From assembly GCF_004010195.1 (NCBI RefSeq), contig NC_057751.1:7364063-7428062 (forward strand): DNA of 64,000 bases. The letters are read 5' to 3'. This DNA is from Chiloscyllium plagiosum. Its lineage: Eukaryota. Below the pieces are notes generated by a model. That model ran no database searches, had not been told where the DNA came from, and saw only the letters and a list, made by a program, of their open reading frames with translations. Shown piece after piece: positions 9,173-64,000 of the stretch; within the stretch, counting starts at the first letter, position 1, and every line of letters begins with the position of its first letter. The translations under genes and the position numbers were made by a program.

Positions 9173-9666
9173 GTAATTGTATTCAGCTGCCACCTTACCA
9201 GGGAATGTTCGCAGCTCATAATGAGGGAGCGGTGATTCAGTCTGCCATCATCCTTCAGAAAAGGATGCAGATGACCTTTCACACGAAACCAAGCAAGGAA
9301 AAAATAATCTTAGGGTCAAATGTGATTTTGCAAATTAGTGTCTCAAATGGGGGAGTGTATTTTACCATATTATTTTGTCAGGGTTAATTCACCAGTTCCA
9401 TGACCTCAAAAAGAGCAGTTGTCAGAAAGAATTCAGTAAATAAATGTAAAATTTATTGCACTATTGTGAAGGTGTCAGTGAAGCCAGTGCACACGTGTTA
9501 GACACCCCTTGTTGTTTCTGGGCATGTCAACCTGAACCTCCCAATCCTGATCGCTGTCTAGTGTCTTCTGTTAAAACGTGCATGTATCCTGATGTGTATC
9601 AGAAAAAGGGGAGCTGTGTACTTTCACATGATGTTGAGGTGCTAAATTTTGATTGAGATGGACAGG

Positions 9667-9861
9667 GTCAGAAGTCAGATGACACCAGATTTCTTGCCTA
9701 ACAGGTTTATGTGACATCACAAGCTTTCAGAGCATTATCCCTTTGTTCGGTGAAGAAGGTGAACGGGCAACGGCTTCATCTGACAATGACGCAACCCTCC
9801 AAAAGCTCATGATTTCACGTAAACCTGTTGAACTATAACCTGATGTTGTCTGACTTCTGAC
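9667..9861. repeat. Older fold-back palindrome related to 27272-27448
   Basis: Perfect 13-bp terminal inverted repeat gtcagaagtcaga/tctgacttctgac with continuing imperfect symmetry (aacaggttta/taaacctgtt, agcttt/aaagct). Confidence 0.7.
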
Positions 9862-9865
9862 TTTC

Positions 9866-10621
9866 ACATAGAGTCAAAGAGATATACAGCACAACATAGA
9901 CCCTTTGGTCCAACTCATCCATGCTGACCAGATATCAGAAATGAATCTCGTCCCATTTGCCAGCATTTCGCCCATATCCCATTTAAACCCTTCCAATTCA
10001 TATTCCCATCCAGATGTCTTTTAAATGAGGTAATTGTACCAGCCTCCACCACTTCATCTGGCAGCTCATTCCATATGCTCACCACTCTCAGCATGAAAAG
10101 GTTACTTCTTCGATCCCTTTAAAATTTTTCCCCCTCACCTTAAATCTATTCCACCTAGTTTTGGACTCCCCCACCCCAGGGAAAGGAACGTGTTTATTTA
10201 CCCTATTCATGCCCCTCACAATTTTATAAACTTCAATCAGGCCACCCCTCAGCCTGCGATGCTCCTCGGAAAACAGCCTCAGCCTGTTCAGCCTCTCCCT
10301 ATAGCTCAAGTTCTCCAACCCTTGCAACATTCTTGTAAATCTTCTCTGCACCATTTCAAGTTTCACAACATCCTTCCCATAGCGGGGAGTCCAGAATTGA
10401 ACAGCGTATTGCAAAAGTGGCCGAACCTATGTCATGTACAGCCGGGACGTGACCTCCCAGCTCCTATACTCAATAATGTTGACCACTAAGGGCAAGCATG
10501 ACAAATGCCTCCTTCACTTATCCTATCTACCTGTGACTCCACTTTCAAGGAGCCAAGAACATACATTCCAAGCTCTCTTGGTTCAGCAACACCTGCCAGG
10601 ACCTTTCCATTAGGTCTAATG
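9866..10621 (-). mobile_element. CR1 LINE 3' fragment
   Basis: YAVQFWTP..QRRFTRML..RRLRGGLIEVYKI and CR1 3' UTR. Confidence 0.9.
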
Positions 10622-13217: not shown

Positions 13218-14565
13218 TATAGTCATCGAGACGTACAGCATGGAAACAGATCCGTTGGTCCAACCTGTCCACGCTGACCAGATAGCCCAACCCAATCTAG
13301 TCCCACTGCCAGCACCTGATCCATGTTCCTCCAAACCCTTTCTATTCATTAATTCATCCAGTTGCCTTTTAAATGTTGCAATTGTACCAGCCTCCACCAC
13401 TTCCTCTGGCAGCTCATTCCATACACGTACCACCCTCTGTGTGAAAAAGTTGCCCCTTAGGTCCCTTTTATATTAGATTACTTACAGTGTGGAAACAGGC
13501 CCTTCGGCCCAACAAGTCCACACACTGACCCGCCGAAGCGCAACCCACCTGGGCCCATTCCCCTACATTTACCCCTTCACCTAACACTACAGGCAATTTA
13601 GCGTGGCCAGTTCACCTAACCTGCACATTTTTTGGATTGTGGGAAGAAACCGGAGCATCCGGAGGAAACCCACGCAGACACGGGGAGAATGTGCAAACTC
13701 CGCACAGAGAGTCGCCTGAGGTGGGAATTGAACCCGGGTCTCCGGCGCTGTGAGGCAGCAGTGCTAACCACTGTGCCACTGCATATCTTTCCCTTCTCAC
13801 CCTAAACCTATGCCCTCTAGTTCTGGACTCCCCGACCCTAGGGAAAATACTTTGTCTATTTATCCTATCCATGCCCCTCATAATTTTGTAAACCTCTAGA
13901 AGGTCACCCCTCAGCTTCCGACGCTCCAGGGAAAACAGCCCCAGCTTGTTCAGCCTCTCCCTGTAGCTCAGACACTTCAACCCTGGCAACATCCTTGTAA
14001 ATCTTTTCTGAACCCTTTCAAGTTTCTCAACATATTTCAGATAGGAAGGAGACCAGAATTGCACCCAATATTCCAACAGTGGCCGAACCAATGGCCCGTA
14101 CAGCTACAACATGACCTCCCAACTCCTGTACTCAATACTCTGACCAATAAAAGAAAGCATACCAAAGCCTCCTTCACTATCCTATCTACCTGCGACTCCA
14201 CTTTCAAGGAGCTATGAACTTGCACTGCAAGGTCTCTTTGTTCAGCAACACTCTCTAGGACCTTACCATTAAGTGTATAAGTCCTGCTAAGATTTGCTTT
14301 CCCAAAATGCAGCACCTCGCATTTATCTGAATTAAACTCCATCTGCCACTTCTCAGCCCGTTGGCCCACCTGGTGAAGTCCTGTTGTGATCTGAGGTACC
14401 CTTTTTTGCTGTCCACTACACCTCCAATTTTGGTGTCATTTGCAAACTTATTAAATATATCTCTTATGCTCACATCCAAATCATTTATGTAAATGATGAA
14501 AAGTAATGGACCCAACATCAATCCTTGTGGCACTCCACTGGACTGGCCATCAATCAACATTGTCA
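13218..14565 (-). mobile_element. CR1 LINE 3' part interrupted by an HE1 SINE
   Basis: GVPQG..FIIYINDLD..FAND; RPLLEYWVQFWSP; VRVWNELP. Confidence 0.93.
13474..13782 (-). mobile_element. HE1 (V-SINE)
   Basis: tRNA-derived head with A/B boxes, V-domain (tctccccgtgtctgcgtgggtttcctcc) and CR1-like tail; ATAT on both flanks. Confidence 0.92.
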
Positions 14566-14589
14566 CTTGCTTCTCAGATGCCTTTTTTT

Positions 14590-14810
14590 AACCAAAAGAG
14601 AAAATGCTGGAAAATCTCAGCAGGTCTGGCAGCATCTGTAAGGAGAGAAAAGAGCTGATGTTTTGAGTCTAACTGATCCTTTGATAAAGGGTCAATTGGA
14701 CTCGAAACATCAGCTCTTTTCTCTCCTTGCAGATGCTGCCAGACTTGCTGAGATTTTCCAGCATTTTCTCTTTTGATTTCAGATTCCAGCATCTGCAGTA
14801 ATTTGCTTTT
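14590..14810. repeat. Fold-back palindrome of PLE pLTR
   Basis: Arms 14590-14682 and 14686-14778 with few mismatches, centred on the hammerhead remnant gataaagggtc-aattg-gactc-GAAACATC. Confidence 0.88.
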
Positions 14811-16178
14811 TTTTTAACCCTGTTTTACCTTGGTTTGGTTCCCATCCTGCCCCAGCTCTATCATCAGTCCTCTTGCTATTGTGGATTTTGGCATTCATCA
14901 AACTCTGTACGTACATGTATCTCCAAGTATCATTGCTCAGTTCTTGTCTGCAATATCTTCAGGATCTCTGGCATTCTCTCCTTTAGCTTTTCCATCAGGC
15001 TAACACACTCTCAGTATAGACACTCCTTTATGCTTCAGTTTCTTTGGCCAAGTGTTTGGTACCATATCTCATTATCATCTTCTGTCACAATCCAGCATAT
15101 GTATCAAAGGTAATGCATATTTTGATTATAAATCAATGGACCAGTGGAACATGTTGAGATATTTGATTATGTTAAAGGCATTGTTGCTGCTCTGATAGTT
15201 GAGCATTGCCAGAGTAAGTTCAGGAAAAATCAGTGCCTTTTATTTGGCTGTCAGCACCACCAGCTGTACCACTGTTTGTTAACCTGGCACACAGAACTCA
15301 GATCAAATCATAGTCTTTGAAGGTGATGAGCACAGATAGCACCTCAGATGGGTACACCCATGAGACTCAGCAAAACTTGGCCCAGATGTAAAAAAAAAAC
15401 ATTTTTGAAGACGACTCCCACAAGTAAAACAGGCCACTGAGTTGTCTCAAACTGCTTCCTGTTGGTGAAGAGTGCATACCACAACAACATTTTAAGGGTC
15501 ATGAGGGATGGGCAGTAAATGTTGGCCTTATCCAATGACTCATCCCCAAGCGAAAAAAAAACTTGCTTTTCGACCAGCTGGCACCGATCTTGGGAAATTC
15601 TGTTACTTTAAGACTACGTGCTGTTTGCTTATTTTCTTTTTCATAATGAGCAGGCCGTAACACTATGTGAGGCCTTTGTGATGTGAGTGGGGGTTGTCAT
15701 GGTACATGAATGGAGCAGCCCACAGCACAAAAGTCAGTAAATCTCAGCAGGGGTGTACTTCAGCTGAACACAAAAAGCTTTCCTCTTATCTGGACTTCAA
15801 GGTCACAGAGCTGAAAGGGCGGCAGGCGAACATGTTAAGTGTCTTTTGCTTTACAATTGTGACTCCAGAAAATGAGACTTCTCAATGTCACTCTGTTCCG
15901 TTGACATTCCAAACCGTATGAAGGAGACAGGCAGTGAAGTTTTAAGTTGCGCACAAGCCTCAATGTCCTCCTGACAATGCACTGTCACTGAACCTAGAAT
16001 AGTGAACACTTTGTTCTTCTTTTCAGGCACCTGATTATTGGAGATACATCTGGTTGCGTGAGCACTATTCTTGTACTACTGTAGCCCTCTGTAATAATAT
16101 GACATTATCATTTTGGCACAGAGGAAGATTATTCAGTCTATTGTGTCTCAACAGGTTCAGCAGAGAGCGATTCAGTCA

Positions 16179-16954: not shown

Positions 16955-17152
16955 TAAAATAAAATACTATGGATGCTGGAAGTCTGAAATAAAATAAACT
17001 AAGTGCTGGAGAAATTCAGTCGGTGTGGTAGTATCTGTCGAGAGAGAGAAACAGTCTTCTTCTGTAGGAGAGTTATAATGGGCTTGAAATGTTAACTCTC
17101 TTTGTCTCTCCACAGACCTGTTGATTTTCTCCAGCACTTTATTTTATTTTAG
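16955..17152. repeat. Decayed PLE pLTR palindrome
   Basis: aagtgctggagaaa..gagagagaaacag mirrored by ctctctttgtctctccacagacctg..tttctccagcactt; hammerhead remnant at 17061-17095. Confidence 0.6.
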
Positions 17153-17213
17153 TCATTAAATCGGATGATTAGGGAGGCATGAGATCAACTGCAGTTTTCT
17201 GCTTTTGCTACTA

Positions 17214-17559
17214 GGGTGGCATGGTGGCTCAGTGGCTAGCACTGCTACCTCACAGCGCCAGGGACTGGGTTTGATTCCAGCCTCGGGTGACTGTCTGTGT
17301 GGAATTTGCACATTCTCCCCATGTCTGTGTGGGTGCTCTCTGGGTACTCCGGTTTCCTCCCACAGTCCAAAGATGCGTAGCTTGGGTCGATTGGCAATGT
17401 TAAACTGCCCATCGTGTCCAGGGATGTGTTGGTTAGGTGCATTTGTCAGGGTAAATATAGGGTAGTGGGAATGAGTCTGGATGGGTTACTCTTCAGAGGA
17501 TTGGTATGGACTTGTTGGGCCGAAAGGCCTGTTTCCACACTGTGGGGATTCTGCGATTC
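17214..17559 (+). mobile_element. HE1 (V-SINE)
   Basis: ggtggctcagtggctagcactgc head, V-domain and gggccgaaaggcctgtttcc tail. Confidence 0.92.
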
Positions 17560-20023: not shown

Positions 20024-20095
20024 AGCAATGTGGCGCAGCGGGAGCGTGCTGAGCCCATAACCCAGAGGTTGATGGATCAAAACCATCCTCTGCTA
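20024..20095 (+). pseudogene. Initiator tRNA-Met(CAT) pseudogene or variant
   Basis: 72 nt with 6 differences from the canonical vertebrate tRNA-iMet: two in the acceptor stem, one in the D loop, one breaking the anticodon stem and two CpG transitions. No 3' CCA and no T4 terminator immediately downstream. Confidence 0.9.
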
Positions 20096-20135: not shown

Positions 20136-20418
20136 GGGCAGCATGGTGGCTCAGTGGTTAGCACTGCTGCCTCAGCATCAGGGACCCAGGTTCGATTCCG
20201 GCCTCGGGCAACTGTTTGTGTGGAGTTTGCACATTCTCCCCGTGTCTGCATGGGTTTCCTCCCACAATCCAAAGATGTACAGGTTCGATGAATTGGCCAT
20301 TCTAAATTGCCCATTAGTCAGAGGGAAATGAGTCTGGGTGAGTTACTCTTTGAAGGGTCGGTGTGGACTTGTTGGGCCGAAGGGCCTGTTTCCAGACTGT
20401 AGGGAATCGAATCTAATC
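20136..20418 (+). mobile_element. HE1 (V-SINE)
   Basis: Same architecture with internal deletions; 40 bp downstream of the tRNA-iMet copy. Confidence 0.92.
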
Positions 20419-20639: not shown

Positions 20640-21480
20640 GAACCCTTGTTATATTTTGCCAGAAATACCCCAGATGGCAATTTTGCCCTCCTGCACCTTG
20701 GCAGCAGCTGCCCCAAGTTTTAGTGTGTCCCACAGCACGTAGTGCTGGACCTTACAACATGCCCATCTGCAACAATTGATCACGGTGAACTCTTTACACC
20801 TTCCTGAAGAAGGGCTTGTGCCCGAAATGTCAATTCTCCTGTTCCCTGGATGCTGCCTGACCTGCTGCGCTTTTCCAGCAACACATTTCCAGCTCTTTAC
20901 ACTGAACAACCAACAGGTTTCAGGCAGATGAAAGAGGGTCTTTCCCCCAGTTTATGGTCTTCCAGACTCAGTCAGTGTTTGTCTTGGTATGCATTCTGGG
21001 GAATGGACCATGGAACATAAAGTCTGGGACAGACCTTGATGAGAACCAAAGTTTGGGTAGGAGAGGTATCTCTCTCCAGACCTTCTTTGCAAAGGCACAT
21101 TTCAGAAGCACATGTGCGACAGTCTCTTCCCCATCCACAACCACTTTGAGGGCAGCACACGGAGACAGCGTGTGCATGAAAGATCTGACGGGCAGTGCCC
21201 TTTTCTTCACCAGCCAAGTTATGTAGAAAGTTGTGGCAAAATTTGCCCTCTCCCTCTTCCTGCTCGGTCTGAAGTATGCTGCATGGTAACGACTTTGTGG
21301 TGGACTTGTATTCAATGGTGTATCTCTTTGCAAAATTTTCTATTCAGGATAGGTGATGCAGAAAGCTCCAACTATTTGCTGTGTTCTGTGGCATTGAGGC
21401 CAGAACCATCCTTGGCAACACCGGGGCAGGTAGAACCTCAGTATGTCATGACATCTGGTGGAGCTCAAGCTGTTTTTTTT
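20640..21480 (-). mobile_element. Tx1/L1-clade LINE C-terminal fragment
   Basis: KRALPVRSFMH..C..GEETVAHVLLKCAFAKKVW, a CCHC zinc-knuckle region; outer limits uncertain. Confidence 0.75.
20800..20892 (+). mobile_element. PLE mini-insertion (hammerhead 20804-20831 + downstream pLTR) with 10-bp TSD
   Basis: ctctttacac at 20790-20799 and 20893-20902; CTGAAGA-a-gggc-ttgt-gccc-GAAAT-GTC. Confidence 0.8.
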
Positions 21481-24408: not shown

Positions 24409-26367
24409 CTAGATAAGTATGTACCTGTCAGGCAGGGAGGAAGATATAGAATGCGTGAGCTGTGGTTTACTAAGAAGTGGAATCCTGATCAAGAAGAAGA
24501 AGACTTATGTTAGGACAAAATGTGAAAACTCAGGGCGCTTGAGGGTTACAAGGAAGTCAGGAAAGACCTAAAAAGAGAGCTCAGAAGAGCCAGGAGGAGA
24601 CATGAGACGTTGTTGGCGGATAGGATCAGGGTTAACCCTAAGGCTTTCCATAGGTATGTCAGGAATAAAAGAATGATGAGAGTTAAATTAGGGCCAATCA
24701 AGGATAATAGTGGGAAGTTGTGTGTGGAGTCAGAGGAGATGGGGAAGCACTAAATAAATATTTTTCGACAGTGTTCACTATAGAAAATGAGGTATTAGAA
24801 ATACTGCAGAGTGTGAAAATAGACAAGTCCCCTGGGTTGGATGGGATCTATCCTAGGATCCTCTGGGAAGCAAGGGAAGAGATTGCCGAGCCTTTGGCAT
24901 TGATCTTCAAATCATCATTATCTACAAGAATAGTGCCTGAGGACTGGAGGATAGCAAATGTGCTTCCCTTGTTCAAAAAGGGTAGTAGAGACAACCCTGG
25001 TAATTACAGACCAATGAGTCTCACTTCAGTTGTTGGTAAAGTGTTGGAAAAGGCTATAAGAGATAGGATTTATAACTATCTAGAAAAGAATAATCTGATC
25101 AGGGACAGTCAGCACGGTTTTGTGAAGGGTCGGTCGTGCCTAATGAATCTTATTGAGTTTTTTGACAAAGTGACCAAACAGATAGATGAGAGTAAATCGA
25201 TTGATGTGGTGTATATGGATTTCAGTAAGGCGTTCGATAAGGTTCCCCACAGTAGGCTATTAGACAAAATGTGGAGGAATGGGATTGTGGGAGACATAAC
25301 AGTTTGGATCAGTAATTGGCTTGCTGAAAGAAAACAGAGGATTGTAGTTGATGGAACATGTTTGTCTTGGTGTCCAGTTACTAGCAGCGTACCGCAAGGG
25401 TCGGTGTTGGGTTCACTGCTGTTCGTCATTTTTATAAATGACCTGGATGAGGGCTTAGAAGGGTGGGTTAGTAAATTTGCAGATGACACTAAGGTTGGTG
25501 GAGTTGTAGTTAGTGCCGAAGGATGTAGTAGGTTGCAGAGAGACATAGATGCAGAGCTGGGCTGAAAGGTGGCAAATGGAGTTTAATGTGGACAAGTGTG
25601 AGGTGATACACTTTGGACGGAGTAATCGGAATGCAAAGTACTGGGCTAATAGTAAGATTCTTGGGAGTGCAGATGAGCAGAGAGATCTCGGTGTCCATGT
25701 ACACAGATCCCTGAAAGTTGCCACCCAGATTGACAGGGTTGTTAAGAAGGCATATAATGTTTCGGCCTTTATTAATAGAGGGATTGAGTTCCGGAACCAG
25801 GAGGTTATGCTGCAGCTGTACAAAGCTCTGGTATGGCCACACTTGGAGTATTGTGTACAGTTCTGGTCACCGCATTATAAGAAGGATGTGGAAGCTTTGG
25901 AAAGGGTGCAGAGGAGATTTACAAGGATGTTGCCTGGTACAGAAAGAGTGTCTTACGAGGAAAGGCTGAGGGCCTTGAGGCTGTTCTCGTTAGAGAGAAG
26001 AAGGTTGAGAGGTGATTTAGTAGAGACATACAAAATAATCAGAGGGTTAGATAGGGTGGACAGGGAGAGCCTTTTTCCAAGTATGGGGACGGCAAACACG
26101 AGGGGACACAACTTTAAAGTGAGGGGAGATAGGTATAAGACAGATGTCAGAGGTAGTTTCTTTACTCAGAGTAGTAAGGTTATGGAATGCTTTGCCTGCA
26201 ACGGAAGCAGATTCGCCAAGTTTAAGTGCATTTCAGTTGTCATTGGACAGGCATATGGACGTACATGGAATAGTGTAAGTGGGTGGGCTTCAGATTAGTA
26301 TGACAGGGCGGCACAACTTCGAGAGCCAAAGGGCCTGTACTGCACTGTAATATTTTATGTTCTATGT
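24409..26367 (+). mobile_element. CR1 LINE (HER1-like), 5'-truncated, relatively young
   Basis: RT motifs [36 protein letters not shown] (24720-25565), frameshift near 25550, then C-terminus HLEYCVQFWSP; ttctatg tail. Confidence 0.96.
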
Positions 26368-27271: not shown

Positions 27272-27448
27272 AAAGTTTAAAAAAAATCACAAAACCAGGT
27301 TGTAGTCCAGCAGGTTTCGTTGGAAGCAGTAGCTTTGGGAGCGCTGCTTCATCAGGTGGCTGTCCTAATGATAAAGCAGCGCTCCAAAAGCTACTGCTTC
27401 CAACTAAACCTGCTGGACTATTATCTGGTGTTGTGATTTTTAACTTTT
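27272..27448. repeat. Fold-back palindrome, further pLTR-like family (GAAAGCTA-type hammerhead, decayed)
   Basis: aaaatcac..ccaggttgtagtccagcaggttt..ttggaagcagtagcttt.. mirrored by ..aaagctactgcttccaa..aaacctgctggacta..gtgattttt; ctgatgaagcagcgctcccaaagcta on -. Confidence 0.8.
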
Positions 27449-27599: not shown

Positions 27600-29600
27600 A
27601 TTGAAATTTAGAGCCTGTACAATCTGGACGGGCTGAAGGGCCATACTGTGCGTTGTAGTGTTCCATTGTTGTCGTCCTGCCGAGATGGGCGTGGTGGTTC
27701 GTGTTTATTGAGATGCTGTGATTGTACACAGTAGTGACTCTGAGCCTATGTTTATTCAGTGTATGGGATTCTGTTTTGCCGCTCACGGAGGTGGATGTTT
27801 GTATGAATTTCTCTCTCTATCTCTGTCTGTGTGCATATCGGTTGCACTGCCTCTTTAAATGGGCGCGTCAGTCTGTGGGCTGGATTAGAGGCTGCGCGGG
27901 GTTGAATCAGAACAAGTTTCGGGGGGTAAAAAGCAAATTGTATTATGTTCGGAAGAAAAAAAATTGAGGCTGAGCCTTGTAAAAATATACATGTTTTCCG
28001 CGAGAAGGATGTGTAGAAAGAGAGATGCAGAGCGAAGCAATCGCTTCTTGCAAGGTTTTAGCGAATAAACAATAGAGCTTTAAACATCTGGTCATTTTCA
28101 GCGTCGAACTGACGGGCTGTACATCATTTCTCTCTCTGGTTTTACTCCTCCCTCTCCACTCCCGCTTCCAGTTTTCCAGCCGGACCTTCACCTAAGATCT
28201 CGACTTGACGCTGCTCCTTCAGATGGAAGTTTGCTGAAAAAGAGGGCACTGGCCGCTGGGTTTCGGGAAGGAGCGACACTTGTGAACCGAGGTAAGGAGA
28301 GTCTCCAATGGCATTGCAATGAAATCCGTGCTTATACGTCAGACATACCAATCTCGGATCATTGTGTTCTCACATTGTGTAACTCGTTAAATATTTTGTA
28401 GCAAACTCCGGGTTAGTGGCAGTCTCAATCAAGATTAGTATGTCTTGTGTATTTTGAGAAACGTGCAGTCCAGTTTCCATTCGACCCCTGTTTTCTTCCT
28501 CTCCCCAGTTTAATGCAATATAAATGTGTCGCGAAGCTGAAGCCCAAGTCGACCCATTGCCTTTCATTGGTCCAGGACAATGAAAACGAGCAATGGGCGA
28601 GACCGCTTCATTCACAAAGCTGGGCTCGAAGGGGAAAAGCACTGCATACCTCGGGGCTATTGCCACATAGCTGTAGTTTGTTAAATACGTATTTGCCTTC
28701 AATTTTGTTGAAATTGATCTGGTGTAAAAGTAGATTTAGTTCGGTTTTTGACGATGGTCTCATGCGTTTGGTGCTGTATAGTGCATAAAATACCTCGAAG
28801 AGAAGGTCCAGATGCCCGGACCTCCGAGTTCTGCTTTGTTCTTCGCGCCTTGGGCAAATCTGGTGCATTTTTTTTTAAAAAAAAGAGGGAACACCGACCG
28901 ATCGCATTTCAAAACGAGAAGAGTGTAGATTTGGAGGGAGCGGGGAAATGGAGTCTGTCGAATGATAACGCGGTGACCAGGGAGTCGATACTTATTTTTC
29001 CGAATATCGATTCAGTCTACTTCACGGGAGGCTGGAAACGTATGCTGGGCAAGAGCTTCTGCAAAAGAAGCGCCCAATCTCGTTCAGGAGGAGTGCTGGA
29101 CGTTGGTCTGAGTGCAGTGTGCCTTGTTACTGATGAGCAAAATGTTTCTGAATTCTAATATATAGCAACACAGTATGCATTTCCTGGAACCCATACTGAA
29201 ACGGCTGGAAAATGTCAGCTGGACTGCCAGCTTCTGTGGCGAGATAAGAGTTAACGAGCGAGCCTCCTTCAGAATTGTTCCTCCAGCAATTTCTGATTTT
29301 TGTTTGTTTCAGATATATCCTGTGTTCGCACTTGGGTTTTTATTATCAATTTCCTGGCCTCCCACTGAGTTTTGTTTGACCAAAGTGATCTTTACAAGAT
29401 TGAAGGTTGTTTTGTGGAGGTTATTGATGTGGCAGGCGGAGTGGCGCGATGTGCTGAAGGAGGATCTTTGTAACTTCAGTCGGGCTATTTTTTTTCAAAT
29501 GGAGTGACGCAACTTCAATTTAAAAGGGCAGTGTGTGAAACCAGCTGCAAGTCCGAGCAGCTGGGTCAGGATGTGTAGATTTCGGGCTGTTGTTATTTCT
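27600..29600 (+). promoter_or_regulatory. CpG-rich promoter-like region, likely the SEMA4C promoter
   Basis: CpG density is visibly higher than in the depleted flanks. GC box GGGCGTGG at 27687-27694 and CRE-like half site tacgtca near 28335. Contains the exon with the strong donor at 28292. Confidence 0.55.
28180..28291 (+). other. SEMA4C: Putative 5'UTR exon of SEMA4C (start may be 28172, or further upstream if it is the first exon)
   Basis: Strong donor cgag|GTAAGG at 28292 inside the CpG-rich region. It is preceded by a long pyrimidine tract with CAG acceptors ending at 28171 and 28179. Linkage to SEMA4C is inferred from position. Confidence 0.55.
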
Positions 29601-29609
29601 TCGAGGAGA

Positions 29610-29785
29610 AAGTGAGGACTGCAGATGCTGGAGATCAGAGCTGAAAATGTGTTGACCCAGTATATGACAGGAAAAGCGCAGCAGGTCAAGCAGCATCCAA
29701 GGAGCAGGAGAATCGACGTTTCGGGCATGAGCTCTTCAGGATGCTGCCTGATCTGCTGCGCTTTCCCTGTCATATACTGGGTCAA
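29610..29785. repeat. Asymmetric PLE pLTR palindrome
   Basis: Arms 29652-29698 and 29739-29785 enclose a - strand hammerhead with a helix II deletion (29715-29739). Confidence 0.85.
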
Positions 29786-31079: not shown

Positions 31080-33000
31080 ATTTAAAGAACTCAATAAGGT
31101 TTGTGAGGCACAATCTACCTTTCATACAACTGTGTTGAGTATCCCTAATCAACTTCTTCCTCCCTAGATAATTATAAATCCTATCTCTTGTAACCTTTTC
31201 CAACACTTTACACACAACCGAAGTAAGGCTCAGTGGTCTTTAATTACCAGGGTTGTCTCTCCTCCCCTTCTTGAACAAAAGGACAACATTTGCTATCCTC
31301 CAGTCTGTTGTCATTGTCCATAGGAATAGTACCAATGTAAAGATCAAAGCCAAAGACTGCAATCTCCACCCTGGCTTCCCAGGGAATCCTAGGATAATTC
31401 CCATCTGGCCAGGGTACTTACCTATTTTCAGAATTTCCAGCGCCACCTCTTTGTGAACCTCGATCCCGTCTAGTCTAGTCACATGTATCTCAGTATGCTC
31501 CTCCTCAATATTATCTTTTTCGAGTGTGAATACTGACAAAAAATATTCATTTAGCGCTTCCCCTATCTCCTCGGACTCTGCACAACTTCCCATTACTGTC
31601 CATGATTGGCCGTAATCTTTTTCTCGCCATTGTTTTATTTCTGATATGCTTATAGAAAGTTTTAGGGGTTTCCTTGATCCTACCTGCCAACGACTTCTCA
31701 TGTCTTTTCCTGGCTCCTCTTAGCTCTCTCTTTAGGTCTTTCCTGGTTCACCTGTAACTCTGAAGCACCCGCGATGAGCCTTCACGTCTCATCCTAATAT
31801 AGGCCGTCACCGCCGCTGCCTTGACAAGATATTCAACTTCTTTAGTAAACCATGACTCCCTCGCTTAACCACTTCCTCCCAACCTGACAGGTTCATACAA
31901 ATTAAGGACACGTAAGATTAGATTACATTACATTACATTACAGTGTGGAAACAGGCCCTTCGGCCCAACAAGTCCACACCGACTCGCCGAAGCGTAATCC
32001 ACCCATACCCCTACATTTACCCCTTACCTAACACTACGGGCAATTTAGCATGGCCAATTCACCTGACCTGCACATCTTTGGACTGTGGGAGGAAACCGGA
32101 GCACCCGGAGGAAACCCACGCAGACTCGGGGAGAAGGTGCAAACTCCACACAGTCAGTCGCCTGAGGCGGGAATTGAACCCGGGTCTCTGGCGCTGTGAG
32201 GCAGCAGTGCTAACCACTGTGCCACTGTGCCGCCCACATTTCACATTTCACACTTCAATTGTGCCCATCCCCTGCAGTTTCCTTCCCCATCCAGTGCATC
32301 TTAAATCTTGCCTAATCGCATCATAATTGCCTTTAGCCCACCTGTAACTCTTGCCCTGTGGTATATATCTATCCCTTTCCATCACTAAACGAAACAGAAG
32401 CGAATTGTAGTCACTATCACCAAAGTGCTCACCTCTCTCCAAGCCTAACACCTGGCCAGGTTCACTACTCCAGTACCAAATTCAGTGTGGCCTCGCCCCA
32501 TGGCTTGTCTACATACTGTGTTGGGAAAACATCCTGTAAGCATTGTACAAAACTGACACATCTAAAGTACTCGATCTATAGTATTTCCTGTCAGTATTTG
32601 GAAAGTTGAAGTCCCCCATGACAACTACCCTGTTCCTCTTTCTCCTATCTAGAATTATCTTTGCTGTCCTTAAATCTACATCTCTGGAACTACTAAGAGG
32701 CCTATAGAAAACTCCCAACAGGGTGACCTCTCCTTTCCTGTTTCTAACTTCAGTCCATACTGCCTCCATAGAAGAGTCCTCAAACATCCTTCCTGCTACT
32801 GTAATCCTGTCCTTGACTAACAATGCCACACCTCCCCCTCTTTTACCATTTCCTCTCTTCTTATGGAAACTTCTAAATCCCAGAGCCGGAAACAACCATT
32901 CCTGTCCTTGCTCTATCTGTGTCTCTGAAATGGCCACAACATTGAAGTCTCAGGTACCGACCCATGTTGCAAGTTCACCCACCTTATTCTGGATACTCCT
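31080..33000 (-). mobile_element. CR1 LINE fragment (EN + RT start) interrupted by an HE1 SINE
   Basis: AISET..RGGGVALLVK..GVFYRP..VVMGDFNFP (32509-32937) and DWRIANV..FKKG..DNPGN. Confidence 0.92.
31914..32236 (-). mobile_element. HE1 (V-SINE)
   Basis: Same architecture, with (attac)n tail. Confidence 0.92.
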
Positions 33001-46199: not shown

Positions 46200-46570
46200 T
46201 TGGCAATGACTGCAGATGCTGGAAACCAGATTCTGGATTAGTGGTGCGAGAAGAGCACAGCAGTTCAGGCAGCTTCCGAGGAGCAGTAAAATCGACATTT
46301 CGGGCAAAAGCCCTTCATCAGGAATAAAGGCAGAGAGCCTGAAGCGTGGAGAGATAAGCTAGAGGAGGGTGGGGGTGGGGGGAAAGTAGCATAGAGTACA
46401 ATAGTTGAGTGGGGGAGGGGATGAAGGTGATAGGTCAGGGAGGAGAGGTTGAGTGGATATGTGGAAAAGAAAATAGGTAGGCAGGACAAGTCATGGGGTC
46501 AGTGCTGCACATTGATGCCCTGGGGTTGAGTCCGTGTGGGCACATTGATGCCCTGGGGTTGAGTCCGTTT
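46200..46570 (-). mobile_element. PLE pLTR fragment with minimal hammerhead at 46294-46321
   Basis: Reverse complement reads CTGATGA-a-gggc-tttt-gccc-GAAAT-GTC. Junction carries a duplicated QPQGINV-coding piece of the PLE ORF end. Interrupts an old LINE. Confidence 0.85.
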
Positions 46571-48189: not shown

Positions 48190-48522
48190 ACAGGATACAG
48201 CAGCATAGTTATCTCCACAAAAAGTGTTTTCAGCCGAGAGAATCCAATCCCTACAGTGCAGCAAGAGGCCGTTCAGCCCTTAGGGTCTGCTTCAGTGCAC
48301 CAAAGGGCATCCTATCTAGACCTATCCTGATAACCCTGCCTGATATTAGGGCATATCTACCTAACATTCACCTATTTGGATTGTTGGGCAAAATTGGAGC
48401 ACCTGAAGGAAACCCACGCAGACACTGGGAGACTGTATAAACTCCACACAGACAGTGGCTCAAGACCAAAATCAAACCTGGTGCTGAGGCAGCACTGCTA
48501 ACTAATGGGCCAGTGTGCTGTC
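48190..48522 (-). mobile_element. Old HE1-like SINE
   Basis: ggaaacccacgcagacactgggagactgtataaactccacacagacagt and head remnant. Confidence 0.75.
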
Positions 48523-50979
48523 CAGAGGTCTACAAGTGTAGAAACGTACTTTGCGATTGTGACGTATATGAAGCTAGTTGAAATCCTGTATTTTACCACA
48601 AACAAACACTCTGACATGTTTCCGGAAGGATGGAATTTTTAAGACATTGGATCTAGAGCCTCTGAAGCAAGAGCTAAAATTAACAAGGCTGACAAAAAGT
48701 CTGGACAAGGTTAAGCTTGAGAGCGTGAATGAGGTTACCAAGTTAGGTGGAGGGAAGTATGTCTGTACTTGGTGGAACAAAAAATCTGTTTTATTGTGCT
48801 AAATCGATTAATCCATTTTCCACTCCTTGAGGGTGGTTCAAATTTGGAACTTGCAAATGCAACAAATGAACCCTTCTGCATTTCAGATGTATAGAAAAGA
48901 GGAAGGTACCCAATGAAAAGCAAACAGGAAAGGTGGCAGTTGTAATTGGTCGCAAGAAACTCTGCTAATGTAACAAGTGCTGGCAGAGACTATTTGGGCT
49001 GAGTATCCTGCCTCTGGGCTGTACAGTATAGTGCATGTACCATGAGTTTTGCTGAAATGTTGTTTTTTACAGTTTGTACTTGAAATTTGCCCACTGTCCT
49101 TTTTTTTTAAAAAAAAGTCTCGCAGAGAAATTTCATGCTCCCCATCACAGGGTTGACATCATGTAAGTGGGAACAGACAATGAGCTAACCTGCTCACATT
49201 ACGACATGGCAGCAAGGGATTAGCCCATGATCTAATTTGCCTGCATGATGTGTTTGCACTGCGGGAGATGATTCTCCTCTGAGAATTTGCTATTGTAACG
49301 TAAATGACATGCGATTTAATGATTGCACTGATCTCACTGCTCAATATTCATTTGCTTATATACAAGGGTTCAGCTGGGACTTCTGATGTCTGAAGTTGCG
49401 ATTGGACCTTTATGATGACTATGTCTGCATGTTAACTGATTTAATCATCTGAATAATTGAAACATGAGGGTTTTACTGAGCTGTGTACCAACTGCATCAG
49501 TTTTGAACTGTGCACAGGACAACTGGTTTAAGTTTTTGTGCTGAGCCCATTTTGGAAAAATTGAAGTAGTGGTAAGTGTCCATATTTGAATGAGAGCGTA
49601 GTCTTGGTTGCATGACTCATGAGCCCAGTGGTTGAGTCATTTTGCATTAGTCATGCCCACGGTTTGCATTAGAAAGCTGGCCACATAGTGAGGCTGCTGA
49701 AAACTTAAACAAGACTTATCGTCACTAAGTCATGTCTTTCTCATGAATTCTGGCAGCTTTTATGGAGAGCAACACAGCTGTCGAGTATTTACAGAAATTT
49801 GCTCTGCAATTAACTTTGGGTCAATGACATATTGAGATTGTTTTTGGATCTCTAATCTTACATGGAATGCATTCTAGCTAATTGTTTCTGACTTTTGACT
49901 GCAACATGAGAATTTGGGTATGTTTATAGCTTTGACCAGCTTGCATTACTAATGTTAGATTTTTGTGTGATTACTACCTAACCTGAACTATTTCAGTTGG
50001 TCTTGGTGAGTTGATGAACTTAATGATAAGCACTCTGTCCAGAAGTTCCTAGACCAAGTTGATTGTCTCCACTGTTGGTCAGAAGCTGATTCTATGCTTA
50101 GTCACATTTGTTTTTAAGAGGCAGAATTGATTTGTAAGCATCTCACTAGGACTGAGGGGCCTCCCATGAAAGAGTGTCAAAAAGTTTCGGTTATTCTAAG
50201 CTTTTCTCTATGACTGAATGGAGGTAAATAACTGGAAAATTGTAAGGTTTGCCCCATTTATCCTTTAAAAACCAAATAAGTTCTGATTTATCAAGCTTGA
50301 GTGGTTCAGTGCATTGTTCCCTTGCCTCTGAACCAGAAGATGGCATGAAATCCAACTCTAAAATGTGCTGGCTGTGAAAGATCTCTCCCCCCGCCCCCCA
50401 ATGCAGCTTATGTCTGTCCCTAGCCTGGAAAGGTTGGGAGCAAGTGGAAGGCCTTTCAGTTGTCTGAAGTGCCAACTGAATTTGGTGTTGCATAATGGCC
50501 CCACGCAAGGTGGGTAAAGCGAAGGCACTGTTTGCATTTGAAAGACTGATGGAAACAGGATCACAAAATTGACAAGGCAATTACAATATCTAACTTTGGT
50601 AAGCAAGATGGCACCCACTTTCAATTGGCTAGCTCTAAAGTAATGGCGCAGACAAGTTGGGCCATATAACTGCCTCTGCTCTTTTGGTATTGTTTGAAAT
50701 CTTTGTGTTGACAAGGACAGAAAATGTCTGATGCTCTGCAAAGTGATGCTTGTCTGCAAGGTTATCTTGTATTACTCCATGCTGTTGTGCCATTGTGGAA
50801 TGGTATGGAGTCTGTCAGCTCCTGGCAGGCATTGCGCAGCTTACATAGCCTTCAGGGTCTGCTTGTTGTCTGAAACTCATATGCTGTTCAAAACTTTGTT
50901 GCAGTACTGACCAAGTTAACACTTGTTTGCAGCTTGCCCCACCTCCCAAGACCAAGACGTCACAACACAGTGTGGAAGG

Positions 50980-54100: not shown

Positions 54101-54140
54101 TTTAAAGTTTATGATCACCTGATCTGTTTTTTTAAGAATA

Positions 54141-54465
54141 GATTAGATTCCCTACTGTATGGAAACAGGCCCTTCGGCCCAACAAGCCCACACCGACCTC
54201 CGAAGAGTAACCCACCCTGACGCATTCCCCTGCCCTTTTATACCCCTGACTTATGCACCAAACACTGGGCAATTTAGCATGGCCAGTTCACCTGACCTGC
54301 ACATCTTTGGATTGTGGGAGGAAACCGGAGCACCTGGAGGAAACCAACGCAGACACTGGGAGAATGTGCAAACTCCACACAGACAGTCGCCCGAGGCGGG
54401 AATCAAACCCGGGTCTCTGCCGCTGTGAGGCAGCAGTGCTAACCACTGAGCCATTATGCTGCCCC
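54141..54465 (-). mobile_element. HE1 (V-SINE)
   Basis: Same architecture. Confidence 0.92.
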
Positions 54466-54829
54466 AAGTGAGCACAGCAATGCTGACCATTTTGTTTCAC
54501 AAACACTGCTACCTTCACACTCCTGTTCAATGCTATCTGATTTCTTCGACATTAGTCCAAGAGTTACCACCAAGACATTAGAGTCCTGAAACCAGCAGCT
54601 AAAACTTGTGCTGACATCCGGTATTGGACTGGAAGCGCTCAGCTCAGCAGTTCCATCCAATGCAGGTGGTTGGCAAGCTTATCCTTGTCCTTCCTGCAAC
54701 AGCATGGACTGGCCCAGGGTCTTGCATCCCCCTCAATTACCCTCACATCTGTTTCCTGTTAGAGCAGACTGACATTCCCAGAAGTGGGAAGTGAATGAAA
54801 TAAAATGGCACTCTGCCTCTCACAGATGT

Positions 54830-57360
54830 CGGAGAAAGTGAGGACTGCAAATGCTGGAGATCAGAGCTTAAAAATGTGTTGCTGGAAAAGCGCAGCAGGT
54901 CAGGCAGCATCAAAGGAACAGGAGAATCTACGTTTAGGGCATGAGCCCTTCTTCAGGGATGAGGAGGGTGTGCCAAGCAGGCTAAGATAAAAGGTAGGGA
55001 GGAGGGACTTGGGGAGGGGTGTTGGGAATACGATAGGTGGAAGGAGGTTAAGGTGAGGGTGATAGGCTGGAGAGGGGGTGGGGGCAGAGAGGTNNNNNNN
55101 NNNNNTGTTCAGCCACGGGGCAGTTGGGTTGGTTGGTGCAGGTGTCCCAGAGGTGTTCTCTGAAACGTTCTGCAAGTAGGCGGCCTGTCTCCCCAATGTA
55201 GAGGCGGCCACATCGGGTGCAGCGGATGCAGTAAATGATGTGTGTGGAGGTACAGGTGAATTTCTGACGTATATGGAAGGATCCCTTGGGGCCTTGGAGG
55301 TAAATGAGGGGGGACGTGTGAGTGTAAGTTTTTCATTTCTTGCGGTTGCAGGGGAAGGTGCTGGGAGTGGAGGTTGGGTTGGTGGGGGTTGTGGATCTGA
55401 CCAGGGAGTCGCGGAGGGAGTGGTCTTTCCGGAAAGCTGATAGGGCTGGGGAGGGAAATATATCCTTGGTGGTGGAGTCTGTTTGGAGGTGGAGGAAATG
55501 ACGAAGGATGATACCTGGTATCTGGAGGTTGGTGGGGTGGTAGGTGAGGACCAGTGGGGTTCTGTCCTGCTGGCAATTGGAGTGGCAGGGTTCAAGGGCA
55601 GAGGAGCAGGAAGTGGAGGAGATGCGATGGAGAGCATCGTCAAGCACGTCTGAGGGGAAATTGCGGTCTTTGAAGGAGGCCATCTGGGTTGTTCGGTATT
55701 GGAATTGGTCCTCCTGGGAGCAGATGTGGCAAAGGCGAAGGAATTGGGAATATGGGATGGCGTTTTTACAGGGGGCAGGGTGGGAGGAGGTGTAATCTAG
55801 TTAGCTGTGGGAGTCAGTCGGTTTATAGTAAATGTCCGTGTTGAGTCAGTCGTCCGAGATAGAAATGGAGAGGTCTAGGAAGGGGAGGGAGGAGTCTGAG
55901 ACGGTCCAGGTAAATTTGAGGTCGGAGCGGAAGGTATTAGTAAAGTGGACGAACTGTTCAACCTCCTCGTGGGAGCACAAGGTAGCGCCGATGCAGTCAT
56001 CGATGTAGCGGAAGAAAAGGTGGGGTGTGGTGCCAGTGTAGCTGTGGAAGATGGACTGTTCCACATATCCGACGAAGAGGCAAGCATAGCTGGGGCCTAT
56101 GCGGGTGCCCATGGCTATTCCTTTGGTTTGGAGGAAGTGGGAGGATTGGAAAGAGAAGTTGTTCAGAGTGAGGACCAGTTCAGTCAGTCGAAGGAGGGTG
56201 TCAATGCAAGGGTACTGGTTGGTTCAGCGGGAAAGGAAGAAGCGGAGGGCTTTGAAGCTTTCGTGATGGGGGATGGAGATGTATAGGGACTGGATGTCCA
56301 TGCTGAAGATAAGGTGTTGGGGGCCGGGGAAGCGAAAATCATGGAGGAGGTGGAGGGCGTGGGTGCTGTCCCAAACGTAGGTGGGGAGTTTGTGGACTAA
56401 TGGGGACAGGACCGTGTCAAGGTATGCAGAAATGAGTTCGGTGGGGCAGGAGCAGGCTGAGACAGTGGGTCGGCCGGGGCAGTCAGGTTTGTGGATTTTG
56501 GGCAGGAGGTAGAAACGGGCATGCGGGGTTGGAGGCGGTGGATAAGAGATCCCCTGAGGTGATGAGGTTATGGATGGTCTGGGAGATTATGGTTTGGTCG
56601 GGTCATGGTCAAGGGGGCAATAGGAGGAGATGTCTGCGAGCTGGTGTTTAGCCTCAGCAATATAAAGATCGGTGCGCCAAACTACCACTGCGCCTCCCTT
56701 GTCTGCTGGTTTGATGGTGAGGTTGGGGTTGGAGTGGAGGGCTGCATGTTGCAAGGGTGAGAGGTTGGAGTCGGTGCATCCACTGCACCCGATGTGGCCT
56801 CCTATACATTGGGGAGACAGGCCGCCTACTTGCGGAACGTTTCAGAGGACACCTCTGGGACACCCGCACCAACCAACCCAAACGCCCCGTGGCTGAACAC
56901 TTTAAGTCCTCCTCTCACTCCGCCAAGGACATACAGGCCCTTGGCCGCCTCCATTGCCAGACCATGGCAACACGACGCCTGGAGGAAGAGCGCCTCATCT
57001 TCTGCCTAGGAACCCTCCAACCACAAGGGATGAATGCAGATTTCTCCAGTTTCCTCATTTCCCCTCCCCCCACCTTATCTCAGTCCCAACCCTCGGACTC
57101 TGCACCGCCTTCTTGACCTGCAATCTTCTTCCCGACCTCTCCGCCCCCATCCCCACTCCGGCCTATCACCCTCACCTTAACCTCCTCCCACCTATTGTAT
57201 TTCCAAATGCCCCTCCTCCCTACCTTTTATCTTAGTCTGCTTGGCACACCCTCCTCATTCCTGAAGTAGGCCTTATGCCCGAAACGTCGATTCTCCTCTT
57301 CCTTTGATGCTGGCTGACCTGCTGCGCTTTTCCACCAACACATTTTTAAGCTCTGATCTC
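54830..57360 (-). mobile_element. Penelope-like element (RT + GIY-YIG), 5'-truncated, with inverted 3'-end/pLTR copy at ~56770-57360 (+)
   Basis: Minus-strand RT motifs MGTRIGPSYACLFVGYVE...FRYIDD (55846-56112). GIY-YIG IHCTRCGLLYIGETGRLLAERF on + at 56770-57100, mirrored on - at ~55106-55240. pLTRs at both ends in inverted orientation. Stops and frameshifts present; N gap at ~55094-55105. Confidence 0.93.
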
Positions 57361-61542: not shown

Positions 61543-63344
61543 TAAAACTGACAAAGCAAGCAGTTCTGGAGGCGTCATGTGCAACTAATGCTTTCGTTTA
61601 GAATGACCAGAGTGGAAAACAAACCAGTCTACGTCCGTCATTGCGTTCATGTTACTGGGGTTGAGGGCCAAATTTGCTGTAAGCACTTGAGCATGTCTTG
61701 CTCCTTTCACAACATCTCATTGTTGAATTAACTCATGTTCTGATGCAACGTGTAATAGGATTTGTGCACTTAGTGAATCTAACATATGACAGCAGAAGAT
61801 CGTTGAGAGGATTGCCAGTGGTCTGCTGGCTTGAGGGTAAAGTGAACATTTATGACCTAACGAAGGAGTTAGTTTGGTGGACTGAGTAGAGCTAAGACTT
61901 GGACGTGATGGCAAGCCCAAACCTCAGTCCTGAGGATGACGAGGGGATAGCAAAGCTTTCCAAGCACTTGTTTGTACAGCAGTCTGAGCATTTGTAAAAT
62001 GGCAGGGGCCATGCTGTTTGTTTCTCTTGGTCAAAGGTTGCCACCTTGGATTTTCCAGGTAAGTATCTGAAAAGGTGATAAGGATGTGAAACCCTTAAGG
62101 ATCCAACAGATATATGGCAAAACTCCATTGACTATCATGTCCACTGTGGCATGCCTTAGCCTTCAGGTGCAGTATGCTGAATATGGTCCAGCCAAAAGGA
62201 TAGTTGCTCAAATAGCCAGTTCAGCATCTGGCCACTGGAGAACCAGTTTTAGATTGGAGTACAATCGAGTCTGAGCAAATTTGTGAGCATAATAAACAGT
62301 CAGATTGAAATTTTAAAAAGATGCACAGTATGTGCAGTTGTTTGAGGGAATTTAATATTTCCTTTTTCCATTATTGGAGTTTGGAGATTAATAATAAGGT
62401 GTAGAAATCTTCAATTTATTAAAACATACATCAATTCATGTTTTGTCTGTCATTTGGTTTTGTTCTGGTTTATGTGCAGTGAGCTGCTTTCCATTTAAGT
62501 CAGCACTGGGTCAGTTACAGCTTGTGTTTTGTGAGATATTAAAGGGTTAATTTGCTCTGCTGACTGCAGGACATTGGATCTTCCCGGGGTAGGGTGGTAT
62601 GCCTCTGACCACCAGGTGGAATGTAAGGAATTCACTTTACCATCTCTCTCCATTCAGAGCCATTTGCATCATCATCCCCGAGTCAGAATAAGAAGACTGC
62701 AGTTACCAAAGAATAAGAAGACTGCAGTTTACACCAGGTCTTGCCATTAAGCAATGATTTAATCACATTGTCTCAGGAAATGGTGTGATCACCACATTGT
62801 GTCTTGAGTGGCATGTGACTGTGGGAGAAATGGCTGGGGGTTGTCTTGTGGGCGTTACTGTAATATGAAACTTTTGTACTGTAGAAGGGAAGGATGTTTC
62901 TTTTGTTCAGGCATCTCTTGACATGGCTCTGCAAGCCCTGCGAAGTGTTAAGAGTTCCTTCAGAAAGCTTGAACTTAATAAAATTTTGGTGGTACACAGA
63001 AGTTGCCGTATTGCAGTTGCATCAAGTGTGTAAGAGTCTTGAAAAAGAACTTCACATGTGCAGTGTGCATTGGACACTGTTTCCATCAAACATTGCTGCA
63101 AATAAAATTTGGGATTATCTGGAAAGCTGAATTTGTTTCTGTCTCAAATACTACCAGGCACATATTAAGCAGGCTAAATGGAGTAAAATTCCCTTCGCAG
63201 GGAAGAGGGCTCTGCCTTGTCCCAAGGGTGAAATTTTCAGGGTCCTTTGTGTACAGTATAGTAGCATGCAGGCAAGATCAGTACCTGCGGTTTTGATCTG
63301 AAGCCATGAAGGTTTCCAATGTAGTCATGTTGGCTGCTCCTGAT

Positions 63345-63826
63345 AACCTTATGGTCTGCATCCCAGGATACTTAAGGAGGTGGCTCTAGAAATCCTGGAT
63401 GCATTGGTAATCATTTTCCAATGTTCAATAGATTAAGGATCAGTTCCAGCGGATGAAAGGATGACTAATGTTGTCCCAATTGTCAAGAAAGGAGGGAGAG
63501 AGAACAGGGAATTATAGACCAGTTAGGCTGATGTCAGTGGTGGGAAAGATGCTTGAGTCAATTATAAAAGATGAAGTTATGACTCACTTGGATAGTAGTA
63601 ACAGGATATGTCAGATTTACGAAGGGGAAATCGTGCTTGACTGATCTTACGGAATCTTTTGAGGATGTAACTACGAAGATGGACAAGGGAGAGTCAGTGG
63701 ATGTCGTGGACCTGGACTTTCAGAAAGACTTTGAAGTCCCACATGGGAGGTTAGTGAGCAAAATTAGGGCACATAGTATTTGGGGCAAAATACTGACTTG
63801 GACTGAAAATTGGCTGGCTGACAGGA
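63345..63826 (+). mobile_element. CR1 RT fragment interrupted by the PLE palindrome
   Basis: NYRPVRL, DKGESVDVVDLDFQKDFE.VPHGRL. Confidence 0.85.
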
Positions 63827-63832
63827 ATGGAA

Positions 63833-64000
63833 ATGTGTTGCTGGAAAAGCGCAGCAGGTCAGGCAGCATCTAGGGAACAGGAGAATCGACGTTTCGGGCA
63901 TTAGCCCTTCTTCAGGAATGAAGAAGGTCTAATGCCCGAAACGTCGATTCTCCTGTTCCCTAGATGCTGCCTGACCTGCTGCGCTTTTCCAGCAACACAT
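63833..64000. repeat. Fold-back palindrome of PLE pLTR
   Basis: Arms 63833-63914 and 63919-64000 (82 bp, 1 mismatch) with a 4-nt loop; runs off the window end. Confidence 0.92.
63888..63915 (-). ncRNA. Minimal type I hammerhead ribozyme motif with intact core (PLE-derived)
   Basis: CUGAAGA-a-GGGC-uaau-GCCC-GAAAC-GUC: all core nucleotides, 4-bp helix II, palindromic ACGU helix III and GUC cleavage triplet. Activity not demonstrated. Confidence 0.8.

Follow-up and report, generated by a model that had tools for sequence, protein, structure and literature searches.

Head-to-head stubs of Penelope-like elements meet close to the hammerhead core in some families

Introduction

At the end of a 64,000-nucleotide stretch of Chiloscyllium plagiosum DNA (contig NC_057751.1; the whole stretch is called the window here) lies a near-perfect palindrome with its axis at the core of a hammerhead ribozyme. 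Why would two copies of a ribozyme-bearing repeat meet head to head just at the ribozyme? A preliminary description offered two answers, a reverse transcriptase (RT) stop or fold-back at the ribozyme and a class of nonautonomous hairpin "ribozyme-MITEs." Below, the palindrome is compared with its sister loci in the window and with metagenome loci, and the possible origins of its junction are weighed.

Results

The palindrome is a pair of pLTR stubs. The inverted repeat (63833-63914 and 63919-64000) has 82-nt arms with one mismatch and a 4-nt loop. Its perfect run is 72 bp, compared to 9 to 11 bp for the longest perfect stem in eight shuffled windows, so the near-perfect 82-bp arms described earlier are borne out. 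Both 82 bp and the overall ∼170 bp are lower bounds because the right arm stops at the edge of the window, with the right flank and any tail falling outside. The two arms are ∼92% identical to the pLTR at 54872-54969 of a long element with a GIY-YIG domain and weak RT matches. The left arm (63828-63914, minus strand, paired over 63833-63914) is a Penelope-like element (PLE) pLTR stub without a 3′ tail, 94.5% identical to a solo stub at 20801-20891, and its pLTR homology extends out to 63828. The right arm (63919-64000, plus strand) is a pLTR stub starting from U4 of the hammerhead, with one change in helix II. The object is a head-to-head pair of PLE pLTR stubs, in which an inverted, 5′-truncated pLTR copy adjoins the 5′ end as in EN+ PLE insertions. 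Its host is a broken LINE reverse-transcriptase coding remnant (63353-63825, plus strand) that matched the RVT_1 open reading frame (ORF) at 24711-25565 (tblastx E value of 8e-39). A short direct duplication of ∼19 to 20 nt was also seen at 62686-62727.

A motif scan and folding placed a minimal type I hammerhead core at 63888-63915 on the minus strand, with C3 at 63915. The features of minimal PLE hammerheads (CUGAnGA, a bulged base, helix II, GAAA, and a palindromic helix III) are complete on this strand from 63915 to 63888; the modeled core has a 4-bp helix II and a palindromic ACGU helix III, and cleavage is predicted after 63888. On the plus arm the set is incomplete and C3 is absent, and each strand of the palindrome holds a single sense hammerhead. 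The "back-to-back hammerheads" of the preliminary description were therefore only partly confirmed: the motif scan found this one core, at 63915 on the minus strand, but a whole core in just one of the eight arms of the four clear loci. An Rfam search of the window returned no hammerhead match, and all Rfam miRNA matches on the hairpins were under the gathering score. Folding of the 82-bp hairpin transcript gave −166 kcal/mol, compared to −140 kcal/mol with helix II forced, and because the hairpin is far more stable, the hammerhead core is predicted to be buried. At the junction (63912-63921), a 3-nt TCA/TGA microhomology closes the 4-nt loop at 63915-63918. The junction spans an initiator-like word with its A at C3−4, as read from the native sequence upstream of the hammerhead that the long element (54831-57360) supplied.

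The long element (54831-57360, minus strand) is a broken PLE with an inverted segment, RT remnants, a GIY-YIG endonuclease, and a 3′ pLTR with a tail. Its Penelope-like assignment follows from weak RVT_1 matches (E values of 0.002 and 0.045, under the Pfam cutoff) together with a GIY-YIG domain (E value of 8e-5, over the cutoff); a PDB search with the RT piece gave no match. The inverted segment (56775-57360, ∼590 nt) begins 486 nt upstream of C3 and takes in the endonuclease end. The Cys linker before GIY-YIG is degenerate and, judged from its sequence, appears Neptune-like; a Cys motif (the CX2-5CxxC linker of the Neptune clade) is visible in two loci, L054 and L083, of metagenome family P (below). 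A 12-N gap is present at 55094-55105.

Sister loci in the window are all head to head. Alignment confirmed inverted arms at the four other loci named in the preliminary description (14590-14778, 93 nt, 92%; 27282-27441, 73 nt, 90%; 9700-9829, 56 nt, 71%; and 16991-17149, 37 nt, 76%), and its count of at least three distinct pLTR sequences agrees with the three sequence types found. The second type forms a locus at 14584-14819 with a tail on the right arm only, a 10-bp target duplication (14584-14593 and 14810-14819), and an axis within a decayed CUGAnGA box. The third type is seen at 27272-27448, where the arms are 86% alike, the axis is at about C3−5, and a clear target duplication was not found, and in an old locus at 9620-9869, which has its axis at C3−15.5, ∼37 nt extra (likely the tail) on the left arm, and a 10-bp target duplication (9620-9629 and 9860-9869). 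A decayed second-type locus at 16955-17152 retains one hammerhead relic (C3 at about 17062), and its tail-bearing left arm ends 3′ of the core. Two more short loci, absent from the preliminary description (as is the long element), complete the set. At 29605-29785, in the target's family, the tail-bearing left arm reaches C3−2 and the short arm begins 3′ of the hammerhead, leaving a 40-nt loop; a private insertion is common to both arms (29652-29785). At 29200-29312 lies a very decayed second-type locus, recognized by eye, with a left arm that extends to about C3−2. In both, the core is reached by one arm only. Finally, a solo stub of the target's family (20800-20892 within 20790-20902, plus strand) starts at C3−4 between 10-bp duplications (20790-20799 and 20893-20902). 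Target duplications of 10 bp were clean at 3 of the 10 loci examined (14584/14810, 9620/9860, and 20790/20893). An extra 35 to 45 nt, the tail, is on one arm only at 14590, 9667, 16955, and 29605. Every paired locus is head to head, and all seven junctions differ.

Other repeats were noted in the window. A sister pLTR family (17-275 and 46208-46492) differs in its upstream sequence but shares the ATTC that precedes C3 and has TTATCT at −36; both copies reach well upstream of the core. A tRNA-like sequence with a CAT anticodon at 20024-20095 (plus strand; Rfam tRNA, 43.6 bits, several broken pairs) is probably a decayed tRNA-Met copy. A ∼310-bp repeat, presumably SINE-like, occurs in six copies that are 67 to 90% alike (13468-13781, 17213-17551, 20136-20418, 31920-32235, 48359-48524, and 54135-54464).

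Relative to C3, the axis lies at −1.5 at the target, at +3 (inside the box) at 14590, at about −5 at 27272, and at −15.5 at 9667. The statement that the axis of the four clear cases sits at or shortly 5′ of CUGAnGA thus holds as far as nearness to the box is concerned, but there is no fixed point. At least one arm begins within about 15 nt of C3 in all seven short head-to-head loci of the window.

Clustering before the core depends on the family. Metagenome contigs were scanned with a pattern that required one intact core and left the upstream sequence free, which gave 123 loci from about 12,000 stretches: 38 of family P, 55 of family Q, and 30 others (small families or likely chance) that stand outside the P and Q counts. 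The outside test thus covers two families. By this design, a selected arm cannot start downstream of C3, and its partner arm is unselected. Family P is PLE-derived (tblastn E value of 1e-13, L083). Family Q is likely so, judging from weak tblastn matches (L107, E value of 5e-5; L018, E value of 0.002) and a GIY-YIG-like motif recognized by eye; Pfam gave the endonuclease piece no support.

In family P, 27 of 38 copies start 0 to 12 nt before C3 (mode, −8), 2 start at −24/−25, and 9 start past −36 (constant-rate test, P = 1.5e-5; ungapped count, 28 against 1). Both arms meet between −10 and +10 in 13 of 14 P palindromes. In family Q, only 8 of 53 informative copies begin 0 to 12 nt before C3, and of the 17 loci that have an inverted piece, just 4 meet near the core, with the rest starting from −33 to −244. 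The families differ both in copy starts near C3 (Fisher test, P = 7e-8) and in palindromes meeting at the core (P = 1.8e-4). Since P clusters and Q does not, the clustering is real but family dependent. Among the minor loci, an inverted match was found in 4 of 30, and 1 of those 4 was near the core. An axis fixed across families, as the preliminary description had it, is not supported by these proportions (13/14, 4/17, and 1/4). A family-specific 22-nt pattern detected no viral contigs, and 13 viral loci picked up by the general pattern were dropped because no convincing helix II was seen by eye.

Several observations bear on the RNA start. Of 10 long P copies, 8 carry a TATA-like word at −39 to −37, ∼30 nt ahead of the modal boundary at −8; the word set was broadened after inspection, and strict TATAWA occurs in 4. 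About 30 nt is the usual distance from a TATA box to the start. The target's family has a weak AT-rich word, TTATCT, in the TATA position at −34, and its initiator-like A at C3−4 compares with starts at −4 (solo stub), −4 to −6 (target left arm), and −2 (long arm at 29605). Family Q shows no TATA-like word by eye and no start hot spot. The ORF stops at −102 in two P copies; in Q, it stops 15 to 16 nt before C3 in 3 of 4 translated copies and at +1 in the fourth. In one Q locus (L109), the ORF ends within the CUGAUGA box, with the UGA of the box as its stop codon. One P subfamily has a cap-like extra G in three loci (L031, L098, and L099), and the other is without it. A 3′ splice site at the boundary was considered and ruled out, as there is no AG at −8 in family P or at −4 in the target's family. 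In the Penelope of D. virilis, an intron ending at helix I lies downstream of the start, according to the available text of two papers (PMC2377424 and PMC4209133), so not every PLE has its RNA start at the hammerhead.

Reads were mapped to the pLTR at 54800-55092 rather than to the target, and the tables hold the best-supported rows. RNA depth was 799 at 54943, 322 at 54958, and 206 at 54964 and then leveled off near 205 to 224; other subfamilies and sequence mismatches in the reference copy confound this drop. No such decrease over the hammerhead is seen in DNA contig depth (X1, 2.09M at 54940-49, 1.56M at 54960-69, and 2.33M at 54980-89). Among the best 12 of 96 rows of Logan contigs, three joints leave the pLTR at about C3−3/−4, and among the best 15 of 33 rows, one of five opposite-strand joints touches the core region; no start peak appeared among the rows listed for this pLTR. 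An inner 3′ end was marked by 422 and 607 contigs at 54871 and 54875, compared to 1,801 at the full tail end at 54831, counts that are confounded by reference-copy mismatches and a related subfamily. As a side observation, an opposite-strand joint between 54831 and 54875, the full tail end and the inner end (10 contigs in X1 and 5 in X2), suggests that tail-to-tail arrangements occur too. About 54,000 contigs of one run fell on this pLTR, indicating that the family is very abundant. Short-word contigs probably collapse near-perfect hairpins; hence, no axis histogram was drawn from them.

Discussion

The target object is an ordinary PLE by-product. We consider it probable, if only by a little, that the palindrome was made anew from two short cDNAs that ran off the RNA 5′ end and were joined by microhomology. 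The PLE protein would nick both target strands ∼10 bp apart, as the duplications suggest; for an Anolis PLE in vitro, both target strands are nicked and extended (PMC11167929). Each 3′-OH may then prime RT at one of two internal sites bounding the tail, and in vitro the two internal RT starts are the limits of the tail (Frangieh 2024, PMC11167929). With the 5′ pLTR of the transcript as the template, only about 90 to 140 nt would remain before the RNA end, and the RNA is predicted to begin 4 to 8 nt before the hammerhead. One cDNA end would anneal to the other through 1 to 3 nt (for example, TCA/TGA) and be extended; where no second long cDNA formed, a solo stub with the same 5′ end would be left. 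In these families, the hammerhead would be a bystander whose position shows where the RNA begins. We observed the architecture, the duplications, the tails, the boundaries, and the polarities of the arms; we infer where the RNA starts, that two cDNAs are made, and that a jump takes place. Such a family-specific run-off is plausible. The earlier suggestion of an RT stop or fold-back at the ribozyme stands insofar as the loci look like de novo products of PLE RT with junctions near CUGAnGA, but not with the ribozyme as the cause.

A wider reading is possible and is offered tentatively. Neptune-like transcripts may start with the hammerhead, in which case priming in the 5′ pLTR would give a fixed-length strong-stop cDNA on each target strand; this would normally jump to the 3′ pLTR, and the stubs and palindromes would be failed products. 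If so, PLE transcription starts would be recorded in the genome as stub 5′ ends, and one scheme would account for pLTRs, inverted copies, and the one-sided tail.

An origin that needs no RNA end is a single first-strand cDNA that pauses, folds back on TCA/TGA at CUGAnGA, and self-primes, the endonuclease trimming the tail from either end. The native TCA sits 4 nt before the TGA of the box, and the fit is exact for the target junction and for a recurring P junction (L047, L082, and L130) with a microhomology like that of the target, where the complement of U4-G5-A6 meets CA before a short upstream word. One Q locus (L094) folds at a native AGCT palindrome, and Craig 2021 (PMC8557442) credit either-end tails to endonuclease resolution. 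However, other words are used at most P junctions, and solo stubs share the start place without a fold-back (20800, and 13 of 27 short P copies in which no hammerhead-bearing inverted arm was scored). The arms speak against it as well. Ten P palindromes can be seen to both ends, and each of them has a single tail-bearing arm; the arm that starts further upstream is the tail-bearing one in 4 and the tail-less one in 4, with both equal in 2. A tail-less arm that lies further upstream is not producible by a single tail-primed cDNA folding back, and we regard this origin as unlikely. At the junctions of two P loci (L031 and L099), short pieces of the 5′ boundary word are repeated in either orientation, as though RT had jumped more than once at the template end, and in L046 (also L096) a tail-sized inverted piece alone lies at or near the stub 5′ end, which would fit a very short second cDNA.

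The boundary might instead be a cut, made when the GIY-YIG endonuclease of the element cleaves the nascent copy at an ATT that immediately precedes the box, after which the broken ends are joined. The Anolis PLE enzyme prefers 5′-ATT-3′ near the ORF-pLTR junction (PMC11167929); ATT lies at −4 in the target's family and at −7 in family P, and family Q has neither the ATT nor the hot spot. This is quite improbable all the same, as P boundaries range from 0 to −12 rather than marking one bond, and the loci at 27272 and 9667 meet near C3 though no ATT adjoins C3. For head-to-head PLE palindromes, Arkhipova et al. 2013 (PMC3846280) put forward self-priming on an antisense transcript, whose 3′ end would here lie near the box; this accords with X21 reads in both orientations on the pLTR. 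These reads may be intronic, however, and duplication-flanked solo stubs with the same 5′ boundary are left unexplained, which makes the antisense model very doubtful here.

The other proposal of the preliminary description, self-propagating nonautonomous ribozyme-MITEs copied whole by PLE RT, predicts that identical junctions recur. One does, in 3 of 13 P loci (5 with the two variants L116 and L117), but it is present in both P subfamilies, there are 9 to 11 different sequences among the 13 loci, and no junction is common to any two of the seven window loci. That arms within a locus are closer to each other than to other loci was found at the target, where they differ at 1 of 82 positions compared to 5 to 8 in comparisons with three other family copies, but not in 4 of 9 measurable P loci, where an arm is nearer to another locus than to its partner. 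The latter, a point for copying whole, is expected of older copies and is no proof of de novo origin, and arm likeness within a locus could also stem from gene conversion. Symmetric terminal inverted repeats around one shared center, which mark MITEs, are absent, the ends being asymmetric with a one-arm tail. Solo stubs have the same start, and the single sense hammerhead per strand is predicted to lose to the transcript hairpin. Because arms share private variants and junctions differ, palindromes were likely formed anew at each insertion and make up no ribozyme-MITE family, so we hold the MITE proposal to be very unlikely.

In the window and in family P, the 5′ edge of the motif is indeed where the junctions lie, as might be the case if the ribozyme stopped RT through self-cleavage or structure. 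After cleavage, though, arms would start at the cut site (C3+28), and of 13 unselected P partner arms, none does; RT would reach the 5′ edge only after crossing the helices; family Q has the same core and no hot spot; and in vitro insertion products are the same with hammerhead mutants (PMC11167929). A causal role for the ribozyme is thus highly improbable. An assembly or library chimera, which a near-perfect palindrome at the window edge might bring to mind, is hardly credible given sister loci with arms 7 to 30% diverged and target duplications, independent Logan contigs with opposite-strand joints, the same architecture in unrelated metagenome assemblies, and the finding of 82 to 85% of sampled words of 62000-64000 in four DNA runs of two samples.

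Palindromic head-to-head junctions, a tail at one side, and pairs of hammerheads on opposite strands are already known from the literature (2013 to 2021 for the architecture, in the sources available). No statement that PLE 5′ ends cluster before the hammerhead was found in the accessible full-text literature, a scope outside which subscription papers and Repbase notes fall. New in the present analysis are the outside metagenome test, which family Q failed, the spacing of the TATA-like word in P, and the finding of both arm polarities. These touch on the PLE second strand, the inverted pLTR, and tail formation, steps called unvalidated in the available text of PMC11167929. The possible importance lies in a family-specific 5′ hot spot, and a sharp boundary ∼30 nt behind a TATA-like word together with both polarities makes the run-off testable. 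Caution is also in order, as such hairpins are easily misannotated as MITEs, miRNA precursors, or active double ribozymes.

The proposed run-off resembles L1 twin priming in having two primed cDNAs and strong-stop DNA in running off an RNA 5′ end. In twin priming, two target 3′ ends prime, and the upstream part of one RNA is inverted while the 3′ end is not duplicated; retroviral minus-strand strong-stop DNA is a short cDNA, primed by a tRNA and extended to the RNA 5′ end. Among PLEs, published EN+ insertions have an inverted 5′-truncated pLTR, a palindromic junction, and a 30- to 40-bp tail (PMC3846280 and PMC8557442). The loci described here share with those units head-to-head pLTRs and the junction palindrome and, at the sister loci that show them, a tail at one end and the ∼10-bp target duplication, but here the whole insert is two stubs only, about 170 to 240 bp, and junction clustering just before the hammerhead, seen in some of our families, is not described in the available accounts of those units. 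The Anolis Poseidon PLE (PMC11167929) is alike in that both strands are nicked and extended, there are two internal RT starts, and cleavage is unneeded; in the accessible text of that study, second-strand synthesis and the inverted copy are left unexplained and no run-off at a hammerhead is reported. Minimal PLE hammerheads, as far as the published descriptions at hand go, have the same CUGAnGA, bulged A, helix II, GAAA, and palindromic helix III and occur as solo motifs from truncated PLEs or as opposite-strand dual motifs 100 to 700 bp apart, whereas the cores here are 3 to 30 nt apart and mostly decayed or cut by the junction. Non-LTR retrozymes (Li et al., bioRxiv 10.64898/2026.07.22.740005) are, in the text available, likewise noncoding, related to PLE pLTRs, and equipped with a type I hammerhead; their units, each with its own hammerhead, are arrayed head to tail in tandem, whereas the loci described here are head to head.
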